From the NCBI RefSeq assembly GCF_055900595.2, contig NZ_CM148325.1: a stretch of DNA of 64,000 bases. The stretch is one strand, 5' to 3'. The translations under genes and the position numbers were made by a program. Of this stretch, positions 2,492-29,043 are shown in pieces. The notes under the pieces are model-generated. The model ran no database searches. It saw nothing but the letters and a program-made list of their open reading frames with translations, and was not told the origin of the DNA. Numbering within the stretch: position 1 is the stretch's first letter; each line of letters opens with the position of its first letter.

Positions 2492-4342
2492 ATGGCCTTA
2501 TTACAAATTAGTGAACCTGGTTTGAGTGCTGCGCCGCATCAGCGTCGTCTGGCGGCCGGTATTGACCTGGGCACAACCAACTCGCTGGTGGCGACAGTGC
2601 GCAGCGGTCAGGCCGAAACGTTAGCCGACCATGAAGGCCGTCACCTGCTGCCCTCTGTTGTTCACTATCAACAGCAGGGGCATTCGGTGGGTTATGACGC
2701 GCGCACTAACGCAGCGCTTGACACCGCCAACACCATTAGTTCTGTTAAACGCCTGATGGGGCGCTCGCTGGCTGATATCCAGCAACGCTACCCGCATTTG
2801 CCTTATCAATTCCAGGCCAGCGAAAACGGCTTGCCGATGATTGAAACAGCAGCGGGATTGCTGAATCCGGTGCGCGTTTCTGCGGACATCCTCAAAGCAC
2901 TGGCGGCGCGGGCAACTGAAGCCCTGGCAGGCGACTTGGATGGTGTCGTTATCACCGTTCCGGCGTACTTTGACGATGCCCAGCGTCAGGGCACCAAAGA
3001 CGCGGCGCGTCTGGCTGGGCTGCATGTTCTGCGCTTGCTTAACGAACCGACCGCTGCGGCTATCGCCTACGGGCTGGATTCCGGTCAGGAAGGCGTGATC
3101 GCTGTTTATGACCTCGGTGGCGGGACGTTTGATATTTCCATTCTGCGCTTAAGTCGCGGCGTGTTCGAAGTGCTGGCGACCGGCGGTGATTCCGCGCTCG
3201 GCGGCGATGACTTTGACCATCTGTTAGCAGATTACATTCGCGAACAGGCGGGCATTCCTGACCGTAGCGATAACCGCGTTCAGCGTGAACTGCTGGATGC
3301 CGCCATTGCGGCCAAAATCGCGCTGAGCGATGCGGACTCTGTGACCGTGAGTGTTGCGGGCTGGCAGGGTGAAATCAGCCGTGAACAATTCAACGAACTG
3401 ATCGCGCCATTGGTAAAACGAACCTTACTGGCTTGTCGTCGTGCGCTGAAAGACGCGGGCGTTGAGGCTGACGACGTACTGGAAGTGGTGATGGTTGGTG
3501 GTTCTACCCGCGTGCCGCTGGTGCGTGAACGGGTGGGTGAATTTTTCGGTCGTCCACCGCTGACTTCCATCGACCCGGATAAAGTCGTCGCTATTGGCGC
3601 GGCGATTCAGGCGGATATTCTGGTGGGTAACAAGCCGGACAGCGAAATGCTGTTGCTTGATGTGATCCCGCTGTCGCTGGGCCTCGAAACCATGGGTGGC
3701 CTGGTGGAGAAAGTGATCCCGCGTAACACCACAATTCCGGTGGCGCGCGCCCAGGATTTCACCACCTTTAAAGATGGTCAGACGGCGATGTCTATCCATG
3801 TAATGCAGGGTGAGCGTGAGCTGGTGCAGGACTGCCGCTCGCTGGCACGTTTTGCGCTGCGTGGTATTCCGGCGCTACCGGCTGGCGGCGCGCATATTCG
3901 CGTAACGTTTCAGGTCGATGCTGATGGTCTTTTGAGCGTGACGGCGATGGAGAAATCCACCGGCGTTGAGGCGTCTATTCAGGTTAAACCGTCTTATGGT
4001 CTGACCGACAGTGAAATCGCTTCGATGATCAAAGACTCAATGAGCTATGCCGAGCAGGACGTAAAAGCCCGTATGCTGGCTGAACAAAAAGTAGAAGCGG
4101 CGCGTGTGCTGGAAAGTTTGCACGGCGCGCTGGCTGCTGATGCCGCGCTGTTAAGCGCCCCAGAGCGTCAGGTCATTGACGATGCTGCCGCTCACCTGAG
4201 TGAAGTGGCGCAGGGCGATGATGTTGACGCCATCGAACAAGCGATTAAAAACGTAGACAAACAAACCCAGGATTTCGCCGCTCGCCGCATGGACCAGTCG
4301 GTTCGTCGTGCGCTGAAGGGCCATTCCGTGGACGAGGTTTAA
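2492..4342 (+). CDS. hscA: Hsp70-family chaperone HscA
   Basis: ORF 2438..4342; Hsp70 signatures ([17 protein letters not shown]); probable start MALLQISEP at 2492. Confidence 0.93.
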
Positions 4343-6494: not shown

Positions 6495-7271
6495 ATGTCC
6501 GAAACAAAAAACGAACTTGAAGAGCTGCTGGAAAAAGCAGCAACTGAACCGGCGCACCGCCCGGCCTTTTTCCGTACTCTACTGGAATCCACTGTCTGGG
6601 TACCAGGTACGGCGGCGCAGGGCGAGGCAGTGGCTGAAGATAGCGCGCTTGATTTACAGCACTGGGAAAAAGAAGACGGTACCAGCGTCATTCCTTTTTT
6701 CACCTCGTTAGAAGCACTGCAACAGGCGGTTGAAGACGAACAGGCGTTTGTCGTAATGCCCGTTCGCACATTGTTTGAGATGACCCTTGGCGAAACGCTC
6801 TTCCTTAATGCCAAACTGCCAATCGGTAAAGAATTTATGCCGCGTGAAATCAGTTTGTTGATTGGTGAAGAAGGAAATCCGCTGAGTAGTCAGGAAGTAC
6901 TGGAAGGCGGCGAATCGCTGATATTATCGGAAGTCGCAGAGCCGCCAGCACAAATGATTGATTCACTTACCACCTTATTTAAAACCATTAAGCCGGTGAA
7001 GCGTGCTTTTATTTGTTCAATTAAAGAGAACGAAGAGGCACAGCCTAATTTACTTATTGGCATTGAAGCCGATGGCGATATCGAAGAAATTATTCAGGCG
7101 GCGGGAAGTGTAGCGACCGATACATTACCTGGTGATGAACCAATAGATATTTGCCAGGTGAAAAAAGGGGAAAAAGGAATTAGCCACTTTATTACCGAAC
7201 ATATTGCGCCATTCTATGAACGTCGTTGGGGTGGATTCCTGCGTGATTTTAAACAGAATCGAATAATTTAA
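6495..7271 (+). CDS. sseB: serine-sensitivity enhancing protein SseB
   Basis: ORF 6486..7271; start likely MSETKNELEEL at 6495; conserved position between pepB and sseA. Confidence 0.85.
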   Translation: MSETKNELEELLEKAATEPAHRPAFFRTLLESTVWVPGTAAQGEAVAEDSALDLQHWEKEDGTSVIPFFTSLEALQQAVEDEQAFVVMPVRTLFEMTLGETLFLNAKLPIGKEFMPREISLLIGEEGNPLSSQEVLEGGESLILSEVAEPPAQMIDSLTTLFKTIKPVKRAFICSIKENEEAQPNLLIGIEADGDIEEIIQAAGSVATDTLPGDEPIDICQVKKGEKGISHFITEHIAPFYERRWGGFLRDFKQNRII

Positions 7272-7720
7272 AATATGCCGCCCCAAAGGGCGGCATTCGG
7301 GCTTACTTGCTGTTCTGAAGGTTGTTAACCATCAGTAAATTGTTGCCGGAGGGACTCCGGTTATTATTTACCTCGGTTAACAGCGCACCAGAAACAATAA
7401 GTACGATACAGAAGCACCGTATCTTCATTGTGCGGTCCATGCGAAGACCGCATCACGACAGCACCACTGGCGATATTGCCGCGATAGCAAGCGCTGTGGG
7501 GTGCCTGCATTTACGGTCATGGAACATCCTTTCCTAAAGCCAGCGCCCGTTTGCGAGACGGCGAAAAGGGCCGTCACGAATAATACTCTCATATTTGAAT
7601 AATTACTCTATTTATTATCTTGACTTAGCCAGGCATAAAAGAGAGTATTTCAACACTGTGGGGTGCCTGCGTTGCTCCGGCAACACAAGTCAACCTGCTG
7701 GAAAGGCCGCGAACCAGACC
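7272..7720. ncRNA. ryfA: ryfA-like small RNA / possible type I toxin locus; strand and ends uncertain
   Basis: ~500 bp non-coding gap between convergent sseB and sseA, the conserved position of RyfA; flanked by hairpin terminators; contains a 15-bp direct repeat CTGTGGGGTGCCTGC (7494..7508 and 7656..7670) and a small hydrophobic ORF on the minus strand (7303..7440). Confidence 0.35.
7275..7296. terminator. hairpin terminator after sseB, possibly bidirectional
   Basis: Perfect 9-bp stem ATGCCGCCC / GGGCGGCAT with 4-nt loop; the minus strand has a U-rich run immediately after the stem. Confidence 0.55.
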
Positions 7721-7723
7721 AGC

Positions 7724-7757
7724 AATAAAAAACCGCCAAATTTGGCGGTTTTTTATT
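7724..7757. terminator. bidirectional rho-independent terminator downstream of sseA
   Basis: AATAAAAAA-CCGCCAAATTTGGCGG-TTTTTTATT: GC stem flanked by A-run and T-run, directly after the sseA stop. Confidence 0.8.
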
Positions 7758-7770
7758 GCCTGTAAAAAGC

Positions 7771-8616
7771 TTATTTCTCTGGCTCAACCGGTAAATCGGC
7801 CCGTGCGCCCCATTCACTCCATGCGCCGTCGTATAGTTTCACGTTTGGCACATCCAGCGTCGCGAGTGCCAATAAAACCACGGCTGCTGTTACACCAGAA
7901 CCGCAGCTGACGATAATTGGTTTGTCGTAGCTGACACCGCGACCAAAAAATATCGCATCCAGTTCATCGGTCGTTTTTAGTTCGCCTTCACGGACCAGTT
8001 CCGTCCACGGAACGTTCAATGCACCGGGAATATGTCCGCGACGTAAACCTGGGCGAGGTTCATCAACTTCTGCGTTAAAACGTGTAGCCGGGCGGGCATC
8101 AATAATTTGCGCCGTATTTTCATGGCTTGCCAATAATACATCGGTTACTTTCACCACGGCTTCAGGATTAAACGCGGCGTTAAACTCTCCTTCCGGCAGC
8201 TCTACTGCGCCTTCTTCTAATAGCAGATCATCACGCTGCCAGCCTGCAAGTCCACCACCCAGAATCGACACTTTCTCTACACCAAAGGTGCGCAGCATCC
8301 ACCATGCGCGTGGGGCTGAGAAAAGATTACCTTCGTCATAGACAATCAGGTGCTTATCCTGGTTAACGCCTAACTCACGCATTGCAACGGCGAACGTTTC
8401 CGGGCGCGGCAGCATGTGCGGAAGCGGGGAAGTGTGATCAGAAAGCGCTTCGATATCAAAAAACACTGCGCCGGGAATATGTCCATTCAGATACTCCTGG
8501 GCAACGTTACGATCTTCCTGTCCAGGCGGTGCCATGCGGGCATCGATAATCTGAATTTCCGGGTCATCAATATGTTCGGCGAGCCAGTCGGCTCCTACAA
8601 ACCATGTCGTGGACAT
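7771..8616 (-). CDS. sseA: 3-mercaptopyruvate sulfurtransferase (tandem rhodanese)
   Basis: ORF 7771..8628; likely start MSTTWFVGADW at 8616; active-site motif CGSGVTA. Confidence 0.9.
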   Translation of the reverse strand: MSTTWFVGADWLAEHIDDPEIQIIDARMAPPGQEDRNVAQEYLNGHIPGAVFFDIEALSDHTSPLPHMLPRPETFAVAMRELGVNQDKHLIVYDEGNLFSAPRAWWMLRTFGVEKVSILGGGLAGWQRDDLLLEEGAVELPEGEFNAAFNPEAVVKVTDVLLASHENTAQIIDARPATRFNAEVDEPRPGLRRGHIPGALNVPWTELVREGELKTTDELDAIFFGRGVSYDKPIIVSCGSGVTAAVVLLALATLDVPNVKLYDGAWSEWGARADLPVEPEK

Positions 8617-8821
8617 AGGCATCTCCATTTTTGCCGGGTTAGGCTAAATTGTCGGATGTTTGGTGAAAAGCGACAAGCAAAAGAGGCTGATTTGGCTGTC
8701 TGAGCCACAATTCTCACTAAAATTCGGATTCCATGAGCGCGATACTGAATTACATAACGTAAATTCTCACGCATAATAATTATTCGACGTTGCTAACGGG
8801 CCATTGTGGCAGGGATGAAAA

Positions 8822-11800
8822 ATGAAAAAGTTACGCGTAGCCGCCTGCATGCTAATGCTGGCGCTGGCAGGGTGCGACAACAACGATAACGCGCCAACAG
8901 CGGTGAAAAAAGATGCACCTTCTGAAGTTACTAAAGCGGCATCTTCAGAAAACGCGAGTTCAGCAAAACTCTCTGCACCGGAGCGACAAAAACTGGCACA
9001 ACAGAGTGCCGGTAAGGCGCTGACATTGCTGGATCTGTCTGAAGTCCAACTCGATGGCGCAGCCACGCTGGTGCTGACTTTCTCTATCCCTCTCGACCCG
9101 GATCAGGATTTCTCGCGCGTTATTCACGTCGTCGATAAAAAGAGCGGCAAAGTGGATGGTGCCTGGGAGTTGTCAGATAATCTTAAAGAGCTGCGTTTAC
9201 GCCACCTCGAGCCGAAACGTGATTTGATCGTTACTATTGGCAAGGAGGTCAAGGCACTCAACAACGCAACCTTCAGTAAAGATTACGAAAAAACTATAAC
9301 TACCCGCGATATCCAGCCGAGCGTCGGTTTTGCCAGCCGTGGTTCGCTGCTGCCTGGAAAAGTTATTGAAGGGCTGCCGGTAATGGCGCTCAATGTTAAC
9401 AATGTCGATGTTAACTTCTTCCGTGTTAAGCCAGAATCTCTGCCAGCATTTATTAGCCAATGGGAATACCGAAATTCGCTGGCGAACTGGCAGTCAGACA
9501 AACTGCTGCAAATGGCGGATCTGGTTTATACCGGACGTTTTGATCTCAATCCTGCGCGTAACACCCGTGAAAAATTATTGCTGCCGCTGGGTGATATCAA
9601 ACCGCTTCAGCAGGCGGGTGTGTATCTGGCTGTGATGAATCAGGCTGGACGTTACGATTACAGTAATCCCGCGACGCTGTTTACATTAAGTGATATCGGC
9701 GTATCGGCCCACCGTTATCACAATCGTCTGGATATCTTTACCCAAAGCCTGGGAAACGGCGCGGCCCAGCAAGGAGTTGAAGTCTCATTATTAAATGAGA
9801 AAGGGCAGACTCTGACTCAGGCAACCAGTGACGCCCAGGGGCATGTGCAGCTGGAAAATGATAAAAACGCGGCATTACTGTTGGCGCGTAAAGACGGTCA
9901 GACAACGCTACTCGATTTAAAACTTCCGGCGCTGGACTTAGCAGAATTTAACATTGCTGGCGCGCCAGGCTATAACAAACAGTTTTTCATGTTTGGCCCG
10001 CGCGATCTTTATCGCCCGGGTGAAACAGTCATCCTTAATGGTTTATTGCGTGATGCAGACGGTAAAGCGTTGCCCGATCAACCCATCAAGCTGGACGTAA
10101 TTAAACCCGACGGGCAGGTACTCAGGAGCGTCGTTAGTCAGCCGGAGAATGGCCTCTATCACTTTACCTGGCCACTCGATAGTAATGCGGCCACCGGCAT
10201 GTGGCATATCCGAGCCAACACGGGCGATAACCAGTATCGGATGTGGGATTTCCACGTCGAAGATTTTATGCCAGAGCGCATGGCGCTGAATCTGACCGGT
10301 GAGAAAACCCCGTTAACGCCGAAAGATGAAGTGAAATTCTCCGTGGTGGGTTACTACCTGTACGGGGCGCCTGCTAATGGTAATACTTTGCAAGGGCAAC
10401 TTTTCCTGCGCCCACTGCGTGAAGCTGTGTCAGCCTTACCTGGTTTCGAATTCGGCGATATAGCTGCTGAAAACCTTTCGCGCACGCTGGATGAAGTTCA
10501 GTTGACGCTGGATGATAAAGGGCGCGGCGAAGTTTCTACAGAAAGCCAGTGGAAGGAAACGCATTCCCCATTACAGGTTATTTTCCAGGGCAGTTTGCTG
10601 GAGTCTGGCGGTCGCCCGGTGACGCGCCGTGCTGAGCAGGCTATCTGGCCTGCCGATGCATTGCCGGGGATCCGTCCGCAATTCGCCTCGAAATCGGTTT
10701 ACGATTATCGCACTGACAGTACGGTAAAACAGCCCATTGTTGATGAAGGCAGTAACGCCGCTTTTGACATCGTTTATAGCGATGCACAGGGCGTCAAAAA
10801 AGCTGTGTCTGGCTTACAAGTGCGCCTGATTCGCGAACGCCGCGATTACTACTGGAACTGGTCAGAAGATGAAGGCTGGCAGTCACAGTTTGATCAAAAA
10901 GATCTGATCGAAAATGAACAAACACTGGATCTTCAGGCTGATGAAACCGGTAAAGTCAGTTTCCCGGTAGAGTGGGGCGCTTATCGTCTGGAAGTCAAAG
11001 CGCCGAATGAAGCGGTCAGTAGTGTGCGTTTCTGGGCTGGCTATAGCTGGCAGGACAATAGCGACGGTAGCGGTGCTGTGCGACCAGACCGTGTCACGCT
11101 GAAACTGGATAAAGCCAGTTATCGCCCTGGTGATACCATTAAGTTGCACATTGCCGCACCAACGGCGGGTAAAGGCTATGCGATGGTCGAGTCCAGTGAA
11201 GGGCCGCTGTGGTGGCAGGAGATTGATGTTCCGGCACAAGGGCTGGATCTGACGATTCCGGTCGATAAAACCTGGAATCGTCATGATCTTTATTTAAGTA
11301 CGCTGGTGGTACGTCCTGGCGATAAATCTCGCTCCGCGACGCCAAAACGCGCAGTTGGCGTGTTGCATTTGCCGCTTGGCGATGAAAACCGTCGTCTCGA
11401 TCTGGCGCTGGAAACTCCAGCGAAAATACGCCCCAATCAGCCATTAACCGTGAAAATTAAAGCCAGCAATAAAAATGGTGAGATGCCAAAACAGGTGAAT
11501 GTGCTGGTGTCTGCGGTTGATAGCGGTGTGCTGAATATTACTGATTATGTCACGCCAGATCCGTGGCAGGCATTCTTTGGTCAGAAACGCTATGGCGCAG
11601 ATATTTACGATATTTACGGTCAGGTTATTGAAGGTCAGGGGCGTCTGGCAGCTCTGCGTTTTGGTGGCGATGGTGATGAACTGAAACGCGGTGGTAAACC
11701 GCCAGTAAATCACGTCAATATTGTTGCGCAACAGGCGCTACCGGTAACACTCAACGAACAGGGCGAAGGCACGGTTACATTGCCGATTGGTGATTTTAAC

Positions 11801-13783
11801 GGTGAATTGCGCGTCATGGCACAAGCATGGACGGCAGATGATTTCGGTAGCAACGAAAGCAAAGTGGTTGTTGCCGCACCGGTGATAGCAGAACTGAATA
11901 TGCCGCGCTTTATGGCCAGCGGTGACACCTCACGTCTGACGCTGGATATCACTAATCTTACCGATAAACCGCAAAAACTGAACGTTGCTCTGACCGCCAG
12001 TGGCTTGCTTGAACTGGTTAGCGATTCACCCGCAGCCGTTGAATTAGCGCCGGGCGTGCGAACCACGCTGTTTATCCCGGTGCGAGCATTGCCGGGTTAT
12101 GGTGATGGTGAAATTCAGGCCACTATTAGCGGGTTAGCGTTACCGGGCGAAACCGTTGCCGATCAGCATAAGCAGTGGAAAATGGGTGTCCGTCCGGCAT
12201 TTCCGGCACAAACCGTCAATTACGGTACGGCGTTGCAGCCTGGTGAGACATGGGCGATTCCAGCTGATGGATTGCAAAACTTCTCGCCTGTTACGCTGGA
12301 AGGGCAATTGTTGTTGAGCGGCAAAGCACCGTTGAATATTGCACGTTATATCAAAGAGTTAAAAGCGTATCCGTACGGTTGTCTGGAGCAAACCGCCAGC
12401 GGCCTGTTCCCGTCACTTTACACCAACGCAGCCCAACTGCAGGCGTTGGGAATCAAAGGCGACAGTGATGAGAAGCGCCGTGCGGCAGTCGATATCGGCA
12501 TTTCTCGTTTACTGCAAATGCAACGTGATAACGGTGGCTTTGCGCTGTGGGATAAAAACGGTGATGAAGAGTACTGGCTGACGGCTTACGTGATGGATTT
12601 CCTGGTCCGCGCAGGTGAGCAGGGTTACAGCGTGCCGACAGAAGCCATTAACCGGGGGAATGAGCGTCTACTGCGCTATTTACAAGATCCGGGCATGATG
12701 TCGATTCCGTATGCGGATAATCTCAAAGCCAGTAAATTCGCCGTACAGTCTTACGCTGCGCTGGTGCTGGCCCGTCAGCAAAAGGCACCGCTGGGTGCGC
12801 TGCGTGAAATCTGGGAGCATCGTGCCGATGCTGCGTCTGGATTACCGCTGCTGCAACTTGGCGTTGCGCTGAAAACCATGGGCGATGCAACGCGTGGTGA
12901 AGAAGCGATTGTGCTGGCGCTGAAAACGCCGCGCAATAGTGATGAGCGGATATGGCTGGGTGATTACGGTAGTCCACTGCGCGACAACGCATTGATGCTC
13001 TCCTTGCTGGAAGAGAACAAATTGCTATCCGATGAGCAGTACCCTCTGCTGAACACACTTTCGCAGCAGGCGTTCGGTGAACGCTGGTTATCAACTCAGG
13101 AAAGTAACGCGCTGTTCCTGGCTGCCCGTACGATTCAGGATTTACCGGGCAAATGGCAGGCGCAAACGTCTTTCTCTGCTGAGCTGCTGACAGGTGAGAA
13201 AGCGCAAACCAGCAATCTGAATAGCGATCAACTTGCCACCTTACAGGTGACCAACAGTGGCGATCAGCCGTTATGGCTGCGTGTGGATGCCAGCGGTTAT
13301 CCGCAATCCGCCCCTTTACCGGCGAGCAATGTGCTGCAAATCGAGCGCCATATTCTTGGCACTGACGGTAAGAGCAAATCGCTGGATTCGTTACGTAGCG
13401 GCGATCTGGTACTGGTCTGGTTGCAGGTCAAAGCCAGTAACAGCGTGCCGGATGCTTTGGTCGTTGATTTACTGCCTGCTGGCCTGGAACTGGAAAACCA
13501 GAACCTGGCTAACGGCAGCGCCAGCCTGGAGCAAAGTGGTAGCGAAGTGCAAAACCTACTCAGTCAAATGCAACAAGCGAACATTAAGCATATTGAGTTT
13601 CGTGACGATCGCTTTGTGGCGGCGGTTGCCGTTGATGAATATCAACCAGTCACGCTGGTGTATCTGGCGCGGGCGGTAACGCCGGGAACATACAATGTTC
13701 CGCAACCAATGGTGGAATCGATGTATGTTCCCCACTGGCGGGCGACTGGCGCGGCTGAAGATCTGTTGATTGTCAGACCGTAA
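8822..13783 (+). CDS. yfhM: alpha-2-macroglobulin family lipoprotein
   Basis: 1653-aa ORF, lipoprotein signal with lipobox LAGC, thioester-like CLEQ motif; conserved pairing with pbpC. Confidence 0.9.
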   Translation: MKKLRVAACMLMLALAGCDNNDNAPTAVKKDAPSEVTKAASSENASSAKLSAPERQKLAQQSAGKALTLLDLSEVQLDGAATLVLTFSIPLDPDQDFSRVIHVVDKKSGKVDGAWELSDNLKELRLRHLEPKRDLIVTIGKEVKALNNATFSKDYEKTITTRDIQPSVGFASRGSLLPGKVIEGLPVMALNVNNVDVNFFRVKPESLPAFISQWEYRNSLANWQSDKLLQMADLVYTGRFDLNPARNTREKLLLPLGDIKPLQQAGVYLAVMNQAGRYDYSNPATLFTLSDIGVSAHRYHNRLDIFTQSLGNGAAQQGVEVSLLNEKGQTLTQATSDAQGHVQLENDKNAALLLARKDGQTTLLDLKLPALDLAEFNIAGAPGYNKQFFMFGPRDLYRPGETVILNGLLRDADGKALPDQPIKLDVIKPDGQVLRSVVSQPENGLYHFTWPLDSNAATGMWHIRANTGDNQYRMWDFHVEDFMPERMALNLTGEKTPLTPKDEVKFSVVGYYLYGAPANGNTLQGQLFLRPLREAVSALPGFEFGDIAAENLSRTLDEVQLTLDDKGRGEVSTESQWKETHSPLQVIFQGSLLESGGRPVTRRAEQAIWPADALPGIRPQFASKSVYDYRTDSTVKQPIVDEGSNAAFDIVYSDAQGVKKAVSGLQVRLIRERRDYYWNWSEDEGWQSQFDQKDLIENEQTLDLQADETGKVSFPVEWGAYRLEVKAPNEAVSSVRFWAGYSWQDNSDGSGAVRPDRVTLKLDKASYRPGDTIKLHIAAPTAGKGYAMVESSEGPLWWQEIDVPAQGLDLTIPVDKTWNRHDLYLSTLVVRPGDKSRSATPKRAVGVLHLPLGDENRRLDLALETPAKIRPNQPLTVKIKASNKNGEMPKQVNVLVSAVDSGVLNITDYVTPDPWQAFFGQKRYGADIYDIYGQVIEGQGRLAALRFGGDGDELKRGGKPPVNHVNIVAQQALPVTLNEQGEGTVTLPIGDFNGELRVMAQAWTADDFGSNESKVVVAAPVIAELNMPRFMASGDTSRLTLDITNLTDKPQKLNVALTASGLLELVSDSPAAVELAPGVRTTLFIPVRALPGYGDGEIQATISGLALPGETVADQHKQWKMGVRPAFPAQTVNYGTALQPGETWAIPADGLQNFSPVTLEGQLLLSGKAPLNIARYIKELKAYPYGCLEQTASGLFPSLYTNAAQLQALGIKGDSDEKRRAAVDIGISRLLQMQRDNGGFALWDKNGDEEYWLTAYVMDFLVRAGEQGYSVPTEAINRGNERLLRYLQDPGMMSIPYADNLKASKFAVQSYAALVLARQQKAPLGALREIWEHRADAASGLPLLQLGVALKTMGDATRGEEAIVLALKTPRNSDERIWLGDYGSPLRDNALMLSLLEENKLLSDEQYPLLNTLSQQAFGERWLSTQESNALFLAARTIQDLPGKWQAQTSFSAELLTGEKAQTSNLNSDQLATLQVTNSGDQPLWLRVDASGYPQSAPLPASNVLQIERHILGTDGKSKSLDSLRSGDLVLVWLQVKASNSVPDALVVDLLPAGLELENQNLANGSASLEQSGSEVQNLLSQMQQANIKHIEFRDDRFVAAVAVDEYQPVTLVYLARAVTPGTYNVPQPMVESMYVPHWRATGAAEDLLIVRP

Positions 13784-16096
13784 ATGCCTCGCCTGTTAAC
13801 CAAACGCGGCTGCTGGATAGCGCTGGCAGCTGCGCCTTTTCTCCTTTTTTTTGCCGCGTGGGGAGCAGATAAACTCTGGCCCCTGCCATTGCATGAAGTC
13901 AATCCCGCACGCGTAGTCGTGGCGCAGGATGGTACGCCACTCTGGCGTTTCGCCGATGCTGAGGGCATCTGGCGCTATCCGGTAACCATCGAAGATGTCT
14001 CTCCGCGTTACCTTGAAGCACTGATCAATTATGAAGATCGCTGGTTCTGGAAGCATCCGGGGGTGAATCCATTCTCGGTGGCGCGCGCAGCATGGCAAGA
14101 TCTCACTTCGGGACGGGTTATTTCCGGCGGCAGCACACTCACCATGCAGGTTGCTCGTCTGCTTGATCCTCACCCCAAAACTTTTGGCGGCAAAATTCGC
14201 CAGCTCTGGCGCGCGTTTCAACTGGAATGGCACTTGTCTAAACGTGACATTCTGACCTTGTATCTTAATCGCGCTCCGTTTGGTGGTACGTTGCAGGGGA
14301 TCGGTGCGGCAAGCTGGGCATATCTCGGAAAATCGCCTGCGAATTTAAGCTATTCCGAGGCGGCAATGCTGGCGGTGTTACCACAAGCGCCCAGCCGACT
14401 GCGTCCGGATCGCTGGCCGGAACGAGCCGAGGCCGCACGTAATAAAGTGCTCAATCGGATGGCTGCGCAAGGTGTGTGGTCCCGTGAGCAGGTAAAAGAA
14501 TCTAGTGAAGAGCCCATCTGGTTGGCACCCAGACAAATGCCGCAACTGGCACCGCTGTTTTCGCGCATGATGCTCGGTAAAAGCAAAAGCGACAAAATCG
14601 TTACTACGCTGGATGCTGGTTTACAGCGTCGTCTGGAAGAACTGGCGCAAAACTGGAAAGGACGATTGCCACCGCGCAGTTCGTTGGCAATGATCGTTGT
14701 TGATCATACTGATATGAGTGTGCGCGGCTGGGTAGGATCGGTTGATCTTAATGATGATTCCCGCTTTGGGCATGTCGATATGGTCAATGCGATCCGATCG
14801 CCGGGATCGGTACTCAAACCGTTTGTTTATGGTCTGGCGCTGGATGAAGGCTTGATCCACCCTGCATCGCTGTTGCAAGACGTTCCCCGGCGCACTGGTG
14901 ATTATCGACCAGGCAACTTTGACAGCGGTTTTCATGGCCCGATCAGCATGAGCGAGGCGCTGGTGCGCTCTCTGAATTTACCTGCTGTGCAGGTGCTGGA
15001 AGCCTATGGGCCGAAACGGTTTGCGGCAAAGTTACGCAATGTTGGATTGCCGTTATATCTGCCCAACGGCGCTGCACCGAATCTTTCGCTCATTCTCGGC
15101 GGCGCAGGTGCAAAACTGGAGGATATGGCTGCAGCGTATACCGCATTTGCTCGCCACGGTAAGGCGGGTAAGTTGCGCTTACAGCCGGGGGACCCATTAC
15201 TTGAGCGACCGTTAATGTCGCCGGGGGCCGCGTGGATTATCCGCCGTATTATGGCAGATGAAGCGCAGCCGCTTCCGGATGGCGCTTTGCCACGCGTCGT
15301 ACCACTGGCGTGGAAAACAGGAACCAGTTATGGCTATCGCGATGCATGGGCTATTGGCGTTAACGCTCGTTACGTAATTGGGATCTGGACTGGCAGACCG
15401 GACGGTACGCCCGTTGTCGGTCAGTTTGGCTTTGCCAGCGCCGTACCGCTGTTGAATCAGGTCAATAATATCTTACTGTCGCGCAGTGCGAATCTGCCGG
15501 AAGACCCGCGTCCTGATTCTGTAAGCCGTGGCGTTATCTGCTGGCCGGGTGGGCAATCATTGCCAGAAGGCGATAGCAATTGCCGCCGTCGTCTTGCCAC
15601 CTGGCTGCTCGAAGATAGCCAGCCACCAACATTACTTTTACCGGAGCAAGAAGGAATAAGTGGGATTCGTTTCCCCATCTGGCTTGATGAGCAAGGTAAA
15701 CGTGTTGCTGCTGATTGTCCTCAGGCTCGACAAGAAATGATTAATGTCTGGCCATTACCACTTGAACCCTGGCTACCTGCTGCTGAACGACGAGTAGCGC
15801 GCTTACCTGGAGCATCAACAAATTGCCCGCCCTATGGTCGCGATGCTCAGGTACCTTTACAGTTGATTGGTGTGCGTGATGGCGTAATTATCAAACGTCT
15901 GCCAGGAGCTACTGATGCGTCATTACCAGTACAATTAAGCGGAGGAACAGGCGAACGCTGGTGGTTTCTTAATGGTGAACCGTTAGCTGAACGCGGGCGT
16001 AACGTGACTCTGCATTTGACAGAGAAAGGCGATTATCAATTGCTGGTAATGGACGAAATGGGGCAGGTGGCGACAGTGAGATTTGTCATGCAGTAG
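13784..16096 (+). CDS. pbpC: penicillin-binding protein 1C (transglycosylase/transpeptidase)
   Basis: 770-aa ORF starting on the nucleotide after the yfhM stop; glycosyltransferase motifs followed by a transpeptidase domain. Confidence 0.9.
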   Translation: MPRLLTKRGCWIALAAAPFLLFFAAWGADKLWPLPLHEVNPARVVVAQDGTPLWRFADAEGIWRYPVTIEDVSPRYLEALINYEDRWFWKHPGVNPFSVARAAWQDLTSGRVISGGSTLTMQVARLLDPHPKTFGGKIRQLWRAFQLEWHLSKRDILTLYLNRAPFGGTLQGIGAASWAYLGKSPANLSYSEAAMLAVLPQAPSRLRPDRWPERAEAARNKVLNRMAAQGVWSREQVKESSEEPIWLAPRQMPQLAPLFSRMMLGKSKSDKIVTTLDAGLQRRLEELAQNWKGRLPPRSSLAMIVVDHTDMSVRGWVGSVDLNDDSRFGHVDMVNAIRSPGSVLKPFVYGLALDEGLIHPASLLQDVPRRTGDYRPGNFDSGFHGPISMSEALVRSLNLPAVQVLEAYGPKRFAAKLRNVGLPLYLPNGAAPNLSLILGGAGAKLEDMAAAYTAFARHGKAGKLRLQPGDPLLERPLMSPGAAWIIRRIMADEAQPLPDGALPRVVPLAWKTGTSYGYRDAWAIGVNARYVIGIWTGRPDGTPVVGQFGFASAVPLLNQVNNILLSRSANLPEDPRPDSVSRGVICWPGGQSLPEGDSNCRRRLATWLLEDSQPPTLLLPEQEGISGIRFPIWLDEQGKRVAADCPQARQEMINVWPLPLEPWLPAAERRVARLPGASTNCPPYGRDAQVPLQLIGVRDGVIIKRLPGATDASLPVQLSGGTGERWWFLNGEPLAERGRNVTLHLTEKGDYQLLVMDEMGQVATVRFVMQ

Positions 16097-16244
16097 TCTG
16101 TTTTGCTCATATTTGTTGCTTAAACTCGTTTTATTTTAAAAAAATGTTACCTTCATCAATAGTCAACGGCCCTGTTGCTCATTATAATCCGCGCCATCTC
16201 GTACGCTGGTACAGACAACAACAGAATAATTTACAGAGGTAAAA

Positions 16245-16676
16245 ATGGCTATTGAACGTACTTTTTCCATCATCAAACCGAACGCGGTAGCAAAAAACGT
16301 CATTGGCAATATCTTTGCGCGCTTTGAAGCTGCAGGGTTCAAAATTGTCGGCACCAAAATGCTGCACCTGACCGTTGAACAGGCTCGTGGCTTTTATGCT
16401 GAACACGATGGAAAACCGTTCTTTGATGGTCTGGTTGAATTCATGACCTCTGGCCCGATCGTGGTTTCCGTGCTGGAAGGTGAAAACGCCGTTCAGCGTC
16501 ACCGCGATCTGCTGGGCGCGACCAATCCGGCAAACGCACTGGCTGGTACTCTGCGTGCTGATTACGCTGACAGCCTGACCGAAAACGGTACTCACGGTTC
16601 TGATTCCGTCGAATCTGCCGCTCGCGAAATCGCTTATTTCTTCGGCGAAGGTGAAGTGTGCTCGCGCACGCGTTAA
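16245..16676 (+). CDS. ndk: nucleoside diphosphate kinase
   Basis: 143-aa ORF; [16 protein letters not shown]-terminus and NGTHGSDS active-site His motif. Confidence 0.95.
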
Positions 16677-16825
16677 TAATTTCGTAAATGCCGCGTGCAA
16701 ACGTGGCATCCATGCGCCAGAATTTGTACAATGCAGCGCCCCCGGACGAGCAGCCGCTCACCGGGGCGTTTCTTTTTTCAACCCTCCAGGGGCCATAACG
16801 TGTAATAACGAGGCCGGAATAGCAT

Positions 16826-17980
16826 ATGTCTGAACAATTAGTCACACCTGAAAACGTCACCACGAAAGATGGAAAAATCAACCTGCTGGATCTCAACCGT
16901 CAGCAGATGCGGGAGTTTTTTAAAGATTTAGGTGAAAAACCCTTCCGCGCCGATCAGGTGATGAAGTGGATGTATCACTATTGCTGCGACAACTTTGATG
17001 AGATGACCGACATCAACAAAGTGTTGCGCGGCAAACTAAAAGAGGTGGCGGAAATCCGCGCACCGGAAGTGGTTGAAGAACAGCGTTCATCTGACGGCAC
17101 CATTAAATGGGCGATTGCCGTTGGCGATCAGCGCGTTGAAACGGTGTATATCCCGGAAGACGACCGTGCCACGCTTTGCGTTTCCTCGCAGGTGGGGTGT
17201 GCGCTGGAGTGTAAATTCTGTTCCACCGCCCAGCAGGGCTTTAACCGCAATCTGCGGGTGTCGGAAATTATCGGCCAGGTGTGGCGTGCAGCGAAAATCG
17301 TTGGCGCAGCAAAAGTCACCGGTCAGCGCCCAATCACTAACGTAGTGATGATGGGTATGGGCGAGCCGCTGCTCAACCTGAACAACGTCGTTCCGGCGAT
17401 GGAAATCATGCTCGATGATTTCGGTTTTGGTCTGTCTAAACGTCGCGTTACGCTCTCTACATCAGGCGTTGTTCCGGCGCTGGATAAACTGGGCGATATG
17501 ATCGACGTAGCGCTGGCAATTTCCCTGCACGCGCCGAACGACGAAATTCGTGACGAAATTGTGCCGATCAACAAAAAGTACAATATCGAAACGTTCCTTG
17601 CTGCGGTGCGCCGCTATCTGGAGAAATCTAACGCCAATCAGGGCCGAGTCACTATTGAATACGTGATGCTTGATCACGTTAACGACGGCACTGAACACGC
17701 GCACCAACTGGCGGAGCTGCTGAAAGATACGCCGTGTAAGATCAACCTGATCCCGTGGAACCCGTTCCCTGGCGCGCCGTATGGACGCAGCTCAAACAGT
17801 CGTATCGACCGTTTCTCAAAAGTGCTGATGAGCTACGGTTTCACCACTATTGTGCGTAAAACTCGTGGTGATGATATCGATGCTGCCTGTGGTCAGTTGG
17901 CGGGCGATGTTATCGACCGTACGAAACGTACCCTGCGTAAACGAATGCAGGGTGAGGCCATCGACATTAAAGCGGTCTGA
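16826..17980 (+). CDS. rlmN: 23S rRNA/tRNA m2A methyltransferase, radical SAM
   Basis: 384-aa ORF with radical-SAM cysteine motif CALECKFC. Confidence 0.92.
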
Positions 17981-18030: not shown

Positions 18031-18264
18031 ATGAAGTATTAAGTTGCAATTGTCTGGTCAATATTAACGGTGCGTTTTTGCTGACTTTAAGGCAGTATGT
18101 AACGATGCAACAGTAAGTTAGCCTTAGTGAATGTGGGCTTTGTCACGAGCACACAGACGGTCTTATACTGTATGATAACGGTTAACTTAACGGATGTTTC
18201 GCGGTGTGGGTGAGCATGATGGTTCACCGGCATCTCAATTCTCATTTAAACGTACCTGCAGCGA

Positions 18265-19278
18265 ATGAATACTGAAGCCACGCACGACCAAAATGAAGCA
18301 CTTACTACCGGCGCTCGCCTGCGTAATGCTCGCGAACAACTAGGACTTAGTCAGCAGGCCGTTGCTGAGCGACTTTGCCTGAAGGTTTCCACGGTACGCG
18401 ACATTGAAGAAGATAAGGCACCTGCCGATCTTGCTTCAACATTCCTGCGCGGATATATCCGCTCTTATGCGCGTCTGGTACATATTCCAGAAGAAGAACT
18501 GCTACCGGGGCTGGAAAAACAGGCTCCACTACGAGCTGCAAAAGTTGCGCCGATGCAGAGTTTTTCCCTCGGTAAACGCCGCAAAAAACGTGACGGCTGG
18601 CTGATGACCTTCACCTGGCTGGTGTTGTTTGTGGTTATTGGCCTGAGCGGTGCCTGGTGGTGGCAAGACCACAAAGCTCAGCAGGAAGAGATCACTACTA
18701 TGGCCGATCAATCTTCTGCGGAACTGAGCAGTAATAACGAACAGGGGCAGAGTGTTCCGTTAGATACGTCGACAACCACAGACCCGACTACGACGTCCAC
18801 GCCGCCAGCGTCTGTGGATACTACCGCAACTAACACGCAAACACCTGCCATAACTTCGCCAGCACCAGCTGTTGATTCACAACAGAATGCAGTTGTTTCA
18901 CCTTCGCAGGCAAATGTTGATACCGCTGCGACCCCGGCACCAACGGCAACAACAACGCCAGATGGTGCTGCGCCGTTGCCAACCGATCAGGCTGGCGTGA
19001 CCACGCCGGCGGCTGACCCGAATGCGCTGGTGATGAACTTTACTGCCGATTGCTGGCTGGAAGTCACTGATGCTACCGGTAAAAAACTGTTTAGCGGTAT
19101 GCAGCGTAAAGACGGTAATTTGAACTTAACCGGCCAGGCTCCGTATAAACTGAAAATTGGTGCGCCAGCCGCAGTACAGATCCAGTATCAAGGGAAACCT
19201 GTCGATCTGAGTCGTTTTATCAGAACTAACCAGGTTGCGCGTCTGACCCTAAATGCCGAACAATCACCGGCGCAGTAA
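18265..19278 (+). CDS. rodZ: cytoskeleton protein RodZ
   Basis: 337-aa ORF: N-terminal XRE-type HTH, single TM segment, Pro/Thr/Ala-rich periplasmic linker. Confidence 0.9.
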
Positions 19279-25503: not shown

Positions 25504-25712
25504 TATTATTTAAATATATGGTGTAATCATTTGTATTCATAATATAAATGATTGCATCCTATTTTATTTGTTGAAACGCAAATGTAAGTGAGCGAAATCA
25601 CTGTGTTATAAATTTAAGATTATATTTAGTTTTCCTGGCGTGCCTTTCTGAATAATCTGGAATAGAATATTAGAGCTAATTTTAAGCATTATTAATGTCA
25701 CAGGGGATGTGC

Positions 25713-27887
25713 ATGCTGCGATGGAAACGCTGTATTATGCTAACATTTATCTCTGGAGCTGCTTTTGCGGCTCCAGAGATAAATGTTGAGCATAAAGAAT
25801 CGTTACCTGATTTAGGTAGTCAGGCCGCACAACAGGAAGAGCAAACTAACAAGGGTAAATCGCTAAAAGAGCGTGGTGCCGATTACGTCATTAACTCTGC
25901 CACGCAAGGGTTTGAAAACCTGACACCCGAGGCGCTGGAGTCCCAGGCCAGAAGCTATCTGCAAAGTCAAATTACCTCTACGACACAATCTTATATTGAG
26001 GATACACTCTCCCCCTACGGTAAGGTCCGAACGAATCTTTCTCTTGGTCAGGGCGGCGATCTGGATGGCAGTTCCATCGATTATTTTGTTCCCTGGTATG
26101 ATAATCAAACTACTGTTTATTTCAGCCAATTTTCTGCACAACGAAAAGAAGATCGTACGATCGGGAATATTGGGCTTGGTGTAAGACATAATTTTGATAG
26201 ATGGTTATTGGGTGGAAATATATTTTATGATTATGACTTTACCCGTGGGCATCGCCGTTTAGGTTTAGGCGCCGAAGCGTGGACTGATTATTTAAAATTC
26301 TCTGGCAACTATTATCACCCGCTTTCTGACTGGAAAGACTCCGAAGATTTCGATTTTTATGAGGAGCGCCCGGCGCGCGGCTGGGATATTCGCGCCGAAG
26401 CCTGGCTACCTGCTTACCCGCAGCTTGGCGGTAAAATCGTTTTCGAACAGTATTACGGTGATGAAGTCGCGCTTTTTGGCACCGATAATCTGGAGAATGA
26501 TCCCTTCGCCGTCACGCTGGGTGTGAAATACCAGCCCCTACCACTCATTGCCGTAGGAACGGATTTCAAAGCCGGCACTGGCGATAATACCGATCTTTCT
26601 GTTAACGCAACGCTGAACTACCAGTTTGGTGTCCCGCTCAAAGACCAGCTTGATCCTGACAAAGTGAGCGCGGCTCACTCGCTCATGGGCAGCCGTCACG
26701 ACTTTGTTGAACGTAACAACTTTATTGTTCTGGAATACAAAGAGAAAGATCCCCTCGATGTCACTTTGTGGCTGAAAGCCGATGCGACGAATGAACATCC
26801 CGAGTGCGTGATTAAAGATACGCCAGAAGCAGCCATCGGGCTGGAAAAATGTAAGTGGACCATTAACGCGCTCATTAATCATCACTACAAAATCGTTGCT
26901 GCCTCCTGGCAGGCGAAAAACAATGCTGCACGTACGCTGGTGATGCCGGTTATCAAAGAAAATACGCTTACCGAAGGGAACAACAATCACTGGAATCTGG
27001 TGCTGCCTGCCTGGCAGTACAGCTCTGATAAAGCCGACCAGGAAAAACTCAATACCTGGCGGGTACGCCTGTCGCTGGAAGATGAAAAGGGCAATCGGCA
27101 GAACTCCGGCGTGGTGGAAATTACCGTTCAGCAGGACCGTAAAATTGAGCTCATTGTTAACAACATCGCCAATGTACCGGATGAGAACAATCACAGCCAC
27201 GAAGCCAGCGCGCAAGCGGATGGTGTAGATGGTGTCGTCATGGATCTCGACGTTACCGATAGTTTTGGCGACAACACTGACCGTAACGGTAATGTCTTGC
27301 CGCAGGATAATCTCAGCCCGCAGCTGTTTGACGCCAATGATAAAAAAGTGACGCTGACAAATAAACCCTGCACCACCGAGGTGCCGTGCGTTTTTATCGC
27401 CAAACAAGATAAAGAAAAGGGGACCGTTACGCTCTCCAGTACGTTGCCCGGCACCTTCCGCTGGAAAGCGAAAGCCGCCCCTTATGATGACAGTAACTAT
27501 GTTGACGTAACGTTCCTGGGTTCTGACATCGGCGGGCTGAATGCTTTTATCTACCGCGTTGGTGCAGCTAAGCCCGTCAATCTTATCGGCAACAAAGAAC
27601 CGTTGCCTCTCAATAGCCGCTATCGCTTTGTGCTGTGGCGCGACGCTAACAAAGACGGCGTGTTCCAGCTTTCTGAGAAGCTCACTGACGATGAGATGAA
27701 ACAGTATGACTATCAGTGGGAATTCACGGGGCATAGCGTAAATGGCAATACCGGTGCGCAAACCAATACCACGAACGTCGATATAGAGATCCCGGCAACC
27801 AACAAGGAAGCGGCAGCAAAGTTTAGTGCCCAGGTAACCGATGGCGTGCAGGGATACGGTTTGCAGGTCAATTACAGCAAGAAATAG
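25713..27887 (+). CDS. sinH: intimin/invasin-family inverse autotransporter (SinH-like)
   Basis: ORF 25695..27887; ATG 25713 has SD AGGGGA and gives signal peptide MLRWKRCIMLTFISGAAFA; N-terminal beta-barrel-type region with Ig-like passenger domains; island position between yfgJ and xseA. Confidence 0.75.
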   Translation: MLRWKRCIMLTFISGAAFAAPEINVEHKESLPDLGSQAAQQEEQTNKGKSLKERGADYVINSATQGFENLTPEALESQARSYLQSQITSTTQSYIEDTLSPYGKVRTNLSLGQGGDLDGSSIDYFVPWYDNQTTVYFSQFSAQRKEDRTIGNIGLGVRHNFDRWLLGGNIFYDYDFTRGHRRLGLGAEAWTDYLKFSGNYYHPLSDWKDSEDFDFYEERPARGWDIRAEAWLPAYPQLGGKIVFEQYYGDEVALFGTDNLENDPFAVTLGVKYQPLPLIAVGTDFKAGTGDNTDLSVNATLNYQFGVPLKDQLDPDKVSAAHSLMGSRHDFVERNNFIVLEYKEKDPLDVTLWLKADATNEHPECVIKDTPEAAIGLEKCKWTINALINHHYKIVAASWQAKNNAARTLVMPVIKENTLTEGNNNHWNLVLPAWQYSSDKADQEKLNTWRVRLSLEDEKGNRQNSGVVEITVQQDRKIELIVNNIANVPDENNHSHEASAQADGVDGVVMDLDVTDSFGDNTDRNGNVLPQDNLSPQLFDANDKKVTLTNKPCTTEVPCVFIAKQDKEKGTVTLSSTLPGTFRWKAKAAPYDDSNYVDVTFLGSDIGGLNAFIYRVGAAKPVNLIGNKEPLPLNSRYRFVLWRDANKDGVFQLSEKLTDDEMKQYDYQWEFTGHSVNGNTGAQTNTTNVDIEIPATNKEAAAKFSAQVTDGVQGYGLQVNYSKK

Positions 27888-27942
27888 GGTCGGCGCCATG
27901 GCTGATCGGGCCACCGCTGAATATTAATCAAGGAGAGTGTTT

Positions 27943-28935
27943 ATGAAACCTGATATGAAACGTGGCCTGACAAAAGTCGCGCTCGCGTTGATGCTGGCTG
28001 GATACTGTGCCGTACCAGCCGCTATGGCGGAAGATGCCGCCTGGGTCGCCAGTGGAGCGACCGCTGAATTCGAAGGGACTATACCCTGGCTCTATCGCGA
28101 AGGGGGGAATGCCACGATTAACTCGGAAGATGCGGATCACATTAAAGTGACGTCTGATGGTAAAGGGACCCGCCCTGCAGGTAGCGAGACGGATAAACGC
28201 CTTTACTCAGGGGATACCATCACGCTGGGATGGGATATCGGCGATACCGAAGGGGATGTTGATGATGGTCCCGCAGGCATTGATGCGAAAACGACGGCCA
28301 CTATCAAATGGTACAGCTACAGCAATAATGCGGGTGGCGATAAAACGGAGCTGACCGCAGCGGCAGGCAAGACGAGTTATAAACTCACTGATGACGATCG
28401 TGGGCGTTATATCGGTGTTGAAATCCAGCCCATCACCCAGACCGGTAATCCCTTCGAGGGAACGTCGCTGACTCTGCTGGATATTTCAACGGCCAGCGGT
28501 GGCGGCAGCGATACGGACAATGTCGATCCCGGCCCGGTTGTGAACCAGAATCTGAAAGTTGCCATCTTCGAGAAAGGCACCACTACCAACCTTATCGGTG
28601 GTAACACGGCCATTGCGCTTAATAAAACGTATGTGGCCAAACTGTACTCGGATGAAAACCAGAACGATAAATACGACGCAGGTACGGATATGGACGTTAC
28701 CGCTAACTATGACTTTGCATGGGTCTTTAACGGTAACAGTAAACAACTTGCTGCGGCGGGCGGTATTGCTAATGCCAGCTTCGATAACAATGACATTGTT
28801 ATCCCGCAAACTAACGAAGAAGCAAGAACCAGCCTTAACGGTAGTGATCGTAATGGTAAGAGTGGTCTTGCGATCCCGGCAAACGGCGACGGCGTTCAGG
28901 GCTATACGCTGTCTATCATTTACAAACACCACTAA
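27943..28935 (+). CDS. secreted SinI-like protein sharing a C-terminal module with SinH
   Basis: ORF 27937..28935; ATG 27943 preceded by AGGAG; signal peptide; C-terminus DGVQGYTLSIIYKHH parallels the SinH C-terminus DGVQGYGLQVNYSKK. Confidence 0.7.
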   Translation: MKPDMKRGLTKVALALMLAGYCAVPAAMAEDAAWVASGATAEFEGTIPWLYREGGNATINSEDADHIKVTSDGKGTRPAGSETDKRLYSGDTITLGWDIGDTEGDVDDGPAGIDAKTTATIKWYSYSNNAGGDKTELTAAAGKTSYKLTDDDRGRYIGVEIQPITQTGNPFEGTSLTLLDISTASGGGSDTDNVDPGPVVNQNLKVAIFEKGTTTNLIGGNTAIALNKTYVAKLYSDENQNDKYDAGTDMDVTANYDFAWVFNGNSKQLAAAGGIANASFDNNDIVIPQTNEEARTSLNGSDRNGKSGLAIPANGDGVQGYTLSIIYKHH

Positions 28936-29043
28936 TGCGCACAACAGCATTCCCTTACGGGAATGCTGTTTTCGCCTGTTTTGCTTAGCGACGCGTTAAG
29001 CAAAACAGGTTGATGTTTTGTTTATCATGCTGGAGTTTTCTAC

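Follow-up and report, generated by a model that had tools for sequence, protein, structure and literature searches.

The window analyzed here, a stretch of 64,000 nt from contig NZ_CM148325.1 (assembly GCF_055900595.2), carries at positions 8822-16096 of the plus strand two adjacent genes, yfhM, encoding an alpha-2-macroglobulin (A2M), and pbpC, encoding the penicillin-binding protein PBP1C, with the start codon of pbpC directly following the stop codon of yfhM. The region is, virtually beyond doubt, the chromosomal yfhM-pbpC pair of an Escherichia lineage. The reading favored here, with a probability of about two thirds, combines the identity of the two genes with the coupling of pbpC to yfhM by termination-reinitiation; the coupling itself is suggested, at the same level of confidence, by the 0-nt geometry of the junction and the missing Shine-Dalgarno (SD) sequence. 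The term "translationally coupled", applied to the pair in a first-pass annotation of the window, is a reasonable inference. The pair and its arrangement as such are ordinary and have already been described.

The coding sequence of yfhM (8822..13783, plus strand, 4962 nt, 1653 amino acids, ATG start) was delimited by the six-frame list of open reading frames (ORFs), Pfam, PDB and PGAP, and the one of pbpC, a class A penicillin-binding protein 1C gene, occupies positions 13784..16096 of the same strand (2313 nt, 770 amino acids, ATG start). ORFs of 1653 and 770 amino acids with full-length family matches are far above chance. At the junction TAA|ATG (13781..13786) the letters parse as CCG TAA ATG CCT, with the stop codon at 13781-13783, the start codon at 13784-13786 and a gap of 0 nt. 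The two genes share one reading frame, since 4962 is divisible by 3, and the pbpC start cannot be situated farther upstream, since the preceding in-frame codon is the yfhM stop. In the PGAP annotation of NZ_CP098223.1, which is 100% identical here, yfhM and pbpC are placed at exactly 8822..13783 and 13784..16096 and are flanked by sseA (divergent, upstream) and by ndk and rlmN (downstream); several RefSeq E. coli chromosomes also match the 7.7-kb segment at 100% identity. The abutting stop and start codons noted at first pass are hence seen in the ORF list, the sequence and the PGAP record alike, and the assignment of the genes to YfhM (alpha-2-macroglobulin) and PbpC (PBP1C) agrees with Pfam, NCBIfam, PDB and PGAP. 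Comparison with the annotated pair of E. coli K-12, yfhM (ECAM, b2520) and pbpC (PBP1C, b2519), shows the same gene order, the same lengths (4962 and 2313 nt), the same TAA|ATG junction with its 0-nt gap, and the same flanking genes sseA, ndk and rlmN.

The 0-nt TAA|ATG junction is shared with K-12, 2013C-4830, Ch1, O157:H7, E. albertii and Citrobacter. The homology search with PbpC yielded only close E. coli and Citrobacter clusters, and representative proteins were used for the diverse alignment: 34 diverse PbpC proteins were aligned and one genome per species was scanned with this alignment, giving 79 loci. Of the 75 loci that do not run into a contig end, 70 have a co-directional A2M homologue upstream of pbpC. 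By the distance between the A2M stop and the pbpC start, 27 loci have gaps of -20..+12 nt (the tight class, defined by a homology-consistent start within this distance of the A2M stop), gaps of 13-150 nt and gaps over 150 nt occur in 19 loci each, and five loci are ambiguous; structure scoring (see below) put two of the latter into the 13-150 nt class, which then comprises 21 loci. The gap is 0 nt (TAAATG) in E. albertii and Citrobacter, +1 to +3 in Enterobacter (two species), Superficieibacter, Kluyvera and Mangrovibacter, +11 in Enterobacter sp. Ag1, -4 (ATGA) in several Bradyrhizobium, Pseudolabrys and other alphaproteobacteria, 50-60 nt in Yersinia and Photorhabdus, and 430-750 nt in Pseudomonas. 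The Pseudomonas spacer is of this length in all loci and has room for a small gene or a regulatory region. Thus, of the conserved arrangement claimed at first pass, the adjacency of A2M and pbpC (70 of 75 species loci) is the widely conserved feature, whereas the abutting junction is lineage-specific, with a gap of exactly 0 nt only in Escherichia and Citrobacter.

In native E. coli gene pairs, stop-start distances of -8..+10 nt predict termination-reinitiation, the re-initiation drops steeply with distance, and it needs no more than the last 15 nt of the upstream gene (PMC10666635). The pair yfhM-pbpC is likewise co-directional, and its 0-nt gap falls inside this class, although among termination-reinitiation pairs (Huber et al. 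2019, 2023; PMC10666635) the -4 (ATGA) and -1 overlaps are the commonest, and the 0-nt gap is less typical. No SD sequence was found in the 3' end of yfhM. The best duplex of nucleotides -20..-1 of pbpC with the 3' end of 16S rRNA has an energy of +0.4 kcal/mol, which ranks last, level with rodZ, among 19 genes of the window; 92% of arbitrary in-gene positions pair more strongly. Moreover, the 40-nt segments opening 25 to 15 nt before the pbpC ATG are nearly unstructured (-1 to -3 kcal/mol). As there is no SD, the ATG abuts the stop codon and the stretch is unstructured, pbpC is most likely served by ribosomes that have just terminated on yfhM, and it would be translated mainly by termination-reinitiation.

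The species survey points in the same direction. None of the Enterobacteriaceae loci with a 0 or +1 junction has an SD (+0.6 to -0.2 kcal/mol), whereas pbpC genes of Yersinia and Photorhabdus, with spacers of 52-59 nt, are preceded by SDs of -3.8 to -7.8 kcal/mol; overall, tight junctions have weaker SDs (Mann-Whitney p = 0.04). This pattern is the one expected if the junction replaces the SD, and it speaks against the possibility that the abutting codons reflect genome compaction only, the pbpC ribosomes being recruited independently, by SD-independent initiation de novo. Such independent recruitment is consistent with the unstructured start region, as well as with rodZ, a gene of the same window that likewise has no SD (+0.4 kcal/mol), and with the many lineages that keep the pair with spacers of 50-750 nt, so that the pair functions without a tight junction. 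Still, gaps of -8..+10 nt are linked to re-initiation experimentally, as are the last 15 nt of the upstream gene (PMC10666635), and compaction alone seems unlikely. The rodZ start (18245-18267) is the only other start among the 19 without SD pairing, though 284 nt separate it from the preceding gene.

The genes yfhM and pbpC are probably transcribed as a single mRNA that begins upstream of yfhM. The promoter scan found no promoter-like site on the plus strand in the last 800 nt of yfhM, and the pair has been called an operon (PMC4498604). In the divergent sseA-yfhM intergenic region there is a sigma-70-like promoter candidate, ATTACA-17-CATAAT (8749..8777, plus strand), which matches 9 of 12 consensus positions and lies 45 nt upstream of the yfhM start; since shuffled sequence is expected to contain as many sigma-70-like matches as the region does, this site is no more than a candidate. 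The operon-decay supplementary tables contain nothing on yfhM or pbpC.

Several considerations weigh against coupling by termination-reinitiation. The literature searched gave no experiment showing that the translation of pbpC depends on the translation of yfhM. An unstructured start without an SD is sometimes usable de novo. The loci surveyed come from species that are related by descent and thus not independent, and for junctions other than the tight ones the start codons were set heuristically. Finally, as detailed below, a stable structure follows the junction, and such post-stop structures inhibit re-initiation and, across the genome, are underrepresented where the junction is shorter than 25 nt (PMC7518266), so that the hairpin could mean weak coupling.

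A different use of the same geometry, namely read-through of the in-frame stop codon yielding a functional YfhM-PbpC fusion, was considered and rejected. The TAA ATG junction does keep both genes in one frame, but this relation is not kept in relatives, where the gaps are +1, +11 or -4. No read-through signal is evident at the junction, and a synthetic operon yielded hardly any detectable read-through product (PMC7518266). Moreover, the topology is wrong: judging from it, the PbpC anchor placed after a periplasmic C-terminus would put the catalytic domains in the cytoplasm. The fusion is therefore extremely improbable.

The strongest local structure within 100 nt on either side of the junction is a 12-bp hairpin, CGCGGCUGCUGG-AUAGCG-CUGGCAGCUGCG (13805..13834, plus strand, +22..+51 of pbpC, -21.2 kcal/mol), directly followed by the U-rich tract CCUUUUCUCCUUUUUUUU (13835..13852, plus strand), which encodes PFLLFF of the membrane anchor and gives the site a terminator-like look. 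The hairpin is conserved in five E. coli lineages, and it is also kept in Citrobacter, Kluyvera, Superficieibacter and Enterobacter, where the U-rich tract is not conserved; the tract does not extend beyond Escherichia (E. coli, E. albertii) and Mangrovibacter. In the alignment of 11 Enterobacteriaceae junctions, 89% of the cells in the 12 pairs are standard pairs, and six of the 12 show two-sided changes (for instance, CG, AU and GC at one position), both the hairpin nucleotides and the encoded amino acids being different between genera. The covariation score is 0.494, compared to 0.194 in shuffles (none of 500 reaches the observed value) and 0.08-0.29 in slid registers, and RNAalifold independently yields the same helix as the only consensus structure. 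The Rfam search (E<=0.1) found no RNA family inside yfhM-pbpC, giving only ryfA upstream and sub-threshold matches.

The hairpin begins 21 nt after the yfhM stop codon, which would be just past the footprint of a ribosome positioned on the ATG. More speculatively, it may tune the share of terminating ribosomes that enter pbpC, holding PbpC well below YfhM. Among the entries listed in a deep proteome YfhM is quantified and PbpC is absent, which agrees, weakly, with unequal output. A functional role for the hairpin is tentative, being possible but on balance doubtful, and its selection as a re-initiation valve where the junction is tight and the SD is lost, either confining the ribosome to the ATG or throttling entry into pbpC and resulting in a low PbpC:YfhM ratio, is somewhat more doubtful still.

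The ribosome termination structures (RTS; Chemla et al. 2020, PMC7518266) provide the closest comparison. They are stable structures located right after stop codons that inhibit re-initiation in a synthetic E. coli operon, and they are enriched at junctions of at least 25 nt and depleted at tighter ones (PMC7518266). The pbpC hairpin is inside the -10..+59 zone after the stop and peaks at the edge of the region shielded by the terminating ribosome. According to the energy definition (40-nt segments opening at -10..+20 from the stop, with a free energy of -6 kcal/mol or lower and more stable than the surroundings), the segments starting at +10..+20 have energies of -18 to -21.2 kcal/mol, this being the minimum within 100 nt on either side. 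The RTS definition, however, covers stop codons whose next gene starts 25 nt or more downstream or lies on the other strand (PMC7518266), whereas here the gap is 0 nt. Hence the pbpC hairpin is RTS-like in place and form, but it is not a member of the class as defined. Since it is inside the downstream ORF, beyond the ATG that abuts the stop, it cannot block the pbpC start.

The hairpin may also be a by-product without function, resulting from the GC-rich Arg, Gly, Cys, Trp, Ala and Leu codons of the charged tail and the beginning of the anchor. The energy data agree with this origin. Synonymous recodings of the same peptide already average -16 to -18 kcal/mol, compared to the observed -21.2 kcal/mol, so that the hairpin has z-scores of -1.3 to -1.7 (p 0.06-0.11) in the window, and its K-12 counterpart one of -1.1; the 101-nt junction segment has no folding advantage over its dinucleotide shuffles (z about 0); and Ala, Leu, Trp and Arg codons of signal anchors are intrinsically prone to GC-rich self-complementarity. 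As the z-scores of the 101-nt folding are not significant, the hairpin is not claimed from energy alone. The by-product origin, in turn, is at odds with the compensatory changes that keep the helix across genera while the nucleotides and amino acids change, and with the comparison of species. For the latter, the first 30 codons of pbpC were scored against a synonymous-codon null across the A2M-pbpC pairs. Strong values (z from -2.7 to -5.7) were obtained in E. albertii, Kluyvera, Superficieibacter and Enterobacter Ag1, where the excess is significant, as well as in three lineages unrelated to them, namely a Rhodospirillaceae metagenome-assembled genome, Marinobacterium and Thalassolituus, the hairpins of these unrelated cases starting at +26 to +31. 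The mean z is -1.48 for tight junctions (27 loci), -0.36 for gaps of 13-150 nt (21 loci) and +0.53 for gaps over 150 nt (19 loci); the difference between the tight class and the rest is significant (Mann-Whitney p 2e-5, or 1.6e-4 when collapsed by genus), and the gap correlates with z (Spearman rho 0.53). The PbpC genes preceded by long spacers encode the same type of anchor, yet they have less structure than the null. On the other hand, the alphaproteobacterial pairs with ATGA overlaps show no excess of structure. Taken together, the by-product origin is rather unlikely.

The terminator-like look of the site (a 12-bp stem followed by CCUUUUCUCCUUUUUUUU) corresponds to one more possibility, that is, an intrinsic terminator or attenuator at 13805-13852 that would stop most transcripts shortly past yfhM, leaving pbpC uncoupled at the level of RNA and PbpC produced only by read-through. 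This is indeed the strongest terminator-like site in 8400-16900 (12 bp with 8 GC pairs and a T-rich tail), E. coli, E. albertii and Mangrovibacter all have the U-rich tail, and the absence of PbpC among the listed proteome entries where YfhM is quantified could be explained in the same way. However, the number of terminator-like sites equals the shuffle expectation (12 vs 10.6), the tail opens with CC and is interrupted, and the U-rich tract is lost in Citrobacter, Kluyvera, Superficieibacter and Enterobacter though the hairpin is kept there. Moreover, U-richness is expected from the codons of a hydrophobic helix, and purifying selection persists on pbpC. The Term-seq supplementary tables searched contain no 3' end in pbpC or yfhM, which low expression could explain. 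Therefore, a terminator or attenuator at this position is improbable.

All but one of 5,426 complete E. coli genomes (5,425) carry the yfhM-pbpC locus, and in each of them it is chromosomal. In 18 of the 5,425 it is at least 99% identical to the pair of the window, and in the other 5,407 the identity is 90-95%. The only complete E. coli genome of the collection without pbpC is E. coli NCTC9100, where the region from pbpC +20 through ndk is gone, yfhM is intact, and about 176 nt are left before rlmN. The site is at 4031-4206 of its locus, and the breakpoint corresponds to window positions 13802/13803, at the foot of the hairpin. The YfhM protein of NCTC9100 is identical to that of K-12.

The domain composition of YfhM is complete. 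The Pfam domains bMG1, bMG2, bMG3, MG2, bMG5, bMG6, A2M_BRD, A2M, TED, CUB and bMG10 are all above their cut-offs, as is TED_complement, and full-length PDB matches were found to E. coli YfhM/ECAM (4rtd, 4ziq and 5a42, E=0) and to Salmonella A2M (4u48). The NCBIfam search of YfhM gave no model match, and its identity rests on Pfam, PDB and the annotation. The N-terminal lipoprotein signal peptide (8822..8875, plus strand) contains the lipobox LAGC (amino acids 15-18), with Cys18 followed by Asp19. Asp at position +2 of a lipoprotein is an inner-membrane retention residue. Consistent with this, ECAM has been reported to be anchored in the inner membrane (PMC4498604). The bait region, a disordered segment that can be cleaved by proteases, comprises amino acids 923-963 (11588..11710, plus strand; limits from PMC4498604), and amino acids 915-965 around it are identical to K-12. 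The thioester motif CLEQ (12380..12391, plus strand; Cys1187-Gln1190) has the same residue numbers as in ECAM (PMC4498604), and the C-terminal MG domain carries RDDR (1594-1597) and ESMY (1632-1635). Judging from these features, YfhM is an inner-membrane-anchored periplasmic alpha-2-macroglobulin (ECAM), predicted to be a lipoprotein with a bait region and a CLEQ thioester. It is 97.9% identical to K-12 ECAM, which traps the protease covalently after the cleavage of the bait (PMC4498604, PMC3328433); for YfhM of E. coli and Salmonella the described sequence of events is the cutting of the bait by the protease, a conformational change and covalent trapping.

With the lipobox Cys, the CxEQ motif in TED, the bait region with an array of MG domains, and pbpC as a neighbor, YfhM is an orthologue of class 1 bacterial alpha-2-macroglobulins (PBP1C-linked, with CxEQ, e.g., Salmonella SaA2M, 4u48) without substantive difference, sharing with them the lipobox, the bait region, CLEQ, the MG/TED/CUB architecture and the adjacency to pbpC. 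Class 2 proteins (MagD/YfaS type), in contrast, do not have these Cys residues and are encoded in a six-gene operon (PMC3735191).

The PbpC protein has Pfam matches to Transgly (174.8 bits), Transpeptidase and BiPBP_C (PF06832, amino acids 687-767, 61.3 bits) and exceeds the cut-offs of two NCBIfam equivalogs, NF008414 (1548 bits vs 1121) and TIGR02073 (902 vs 494). The putative N-terminal transmembrane anchor, suggested by hydrophobicity, is encoded at 13811..13867 (plus strand, amino acids ~10-28, CWIALAAAPFLLFFAAWGA); a single transmembrane anchor has been reported for PBP1C (PMC3328433). The GT51 motif 1, EDRWFWKHPG (14033..14062, plus strand), contains the catalytic Glu84, and further GT51 motifs are GGSTLTMQ (amino acids 115-122) and KRDILTLYLN (amino acids 153-162). 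The transpeptidase-fold motifs (14807..15322, plus strand) are SVLK (amino acids 342-345), SLN (396-398) and KTG (511-513). Among the 34 aligned PbpC proteins E84, S117, T118 and Q122 are invariant or nearly invariant, and S342, K345, S396, N398, K511, T512 and G513 are conserved. The PDB sequence search with PbpC retrieved no PBP1C structure, the nearest entries being PBP1A chains. Every PBP1C feature examined was thus found in PbpC, that is, the equivalog score, the GT51 motifs, the SxxK, SxN and KTG motifs and the PBP1C-specific C-terminal domain BiPBP_C, and the protein is, as far as its motifs indicate, a class A penicillin-binding protein anchored in the membrane, its glycosyltransferase and transpeptidase-fold motifs being intact. 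Both YfhM and PbpC are under purifying selection in comparison with K-12 (ratio of nonsynonymous to synonymous substitutions, dN/dS, of 0.02-0.06), and both genes look functional.

The window motifs occur at the same residue numbers in the K-12 pair. Nevertheless, the nucleotide identity to K-12 is 94.2% for yfhM (97.9% at the amino acid level) and 88.1% for pbpC (94.4% at the amino acid level), whereas it is 95-98.7% for most neighboring genes, with the exception of der (93.3%); housekeeping genes overall are 93-98.7% identical to K-12, with synonymous divergence (dS) of 0.08-0.34. The difference from K-12 is concentrated in the last 210 codons of pbpC, where the window has a much older allele. 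Identity drops to 76% across the last ~500 nt of the gene, and the mosaic 3' third (15464..16093, plus strand, codons 561-770) includes BiPBP_C (amino acids 687-767), the most divergent part of PbpC in comparison with K-12. For codons 561-770 dS is 1.25, that is, 4-15 times the 0.08-0.34 observed in the neighbors, and dN/dS is 0.057; the window lineage, K-12 and E. albertii are about equidistant here, and the identity of this segment to 5,405 E. coli genomes is 80-90%. An explanation by relaxed or positive selection at the 3' end was dismissed: dS exceeds the neighboring values 4-15 times, yet dN/dS is no higher than 0.057, and a recombined older allele fits this combination better. The simplest reading appears to be that the 3' third is an old allele imported by homologous recombination into one of the lineages.

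The divergence and the small number of close genomes (18 of 5,425) suggest that the window comes from a deep-branching E. coli or a cryptic-clade-like background. As for the use of the pair as an orientation marker of the core region, proposed at first pass, it is well founded in the chromosomal location in 5,425 of 5,426 E. coli genomes, with the qualification that, due to the mosaic 3' third of pbpC in the lineage, yfhM-pbpC is a slightly imperfect marker of the clonal frame.

Elsewhere in the window, the ryfA RNA was identified at 7270-7574 on the minus strand (Rfam RF00126, 312 bits vs the gathering score of 80), and in the same sseB-sseA interval NZ_CP098223.1 has an annotated small toxin gene, timP. 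The sub-threshold Rfam matches at 7629-7796 (sraL, 32.8 vs 39 bits, and others) are probably due to chance. The region 25695-37131, ~11.7 kb that are not present in K-12, is situated between yfgJ/der and xseA and holds an inverse-autotransporter beta-domain protein (730 amino acids), a 332-amino-acid ORF without a Pfam match, and an adhesin of 2695 amino acids with nine InvE_AD and nine BIg21 repeats. In NZ_CP098223.1, identical at yfhM-pbpC, this locus consists of two pseudogene fragments annotated as SinH-like, so the window is derived from a different strain. The K-12 gene order ends after guaA, and the following region (42031-64000) contains a tyrosine integrase (42031-43245), a Toprim primase-like protein of 885 amino acids, and an NA37 nucleoid-associated protein inside an island of 35-38% GC (48-52 kb), then phage tape-measure and tail-fibre genes. 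The gene content points to a probable prophage or satellite of the P4/P2 type, inserted adjacent to guaA.

The partnership of a protease trap and cell-wall repair, referred to at first pass as proposed, is documented in the literature (PMC4498604, PMC3735191, PMC3328433), where it has the status of a proposal: YfhM and PbpC would act jointly, protecting and repairing the cell wall upon a breach of the outer membrane. YfhM and PbpC are not known as a stoichiometric complex, their interaction having only been suggested (PMC3328433). Tight junctions are enriched among genes for subunits of complexes (PMC10666635), and this enrichment mildly supports seeking a physical YfhM-PbpC interaction.

As a correctly recognized core gene pair, yfhM-pbpC is useful to orient the window and otherwise matters little. 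The conserved hairpin is a modest addition, no description of it for the yfhM-pbpC locus having been found in the literature searched. If its role is as proposed, it would represent a naturally occurring post-stop structure where the junction is tight, contrary to the genome-wide depletion of such structures there. The effect of post-stop structures was studied in a synthetic operon, and the authors ask for tests on native sequences (PMC7518266). The yfhM-pbpC pair is a clean natural test case for a start codon that has no SD and adjoins a stop codon, and the locus could show whether a conserved structure past the ribosome footprint tunes re-initiation.

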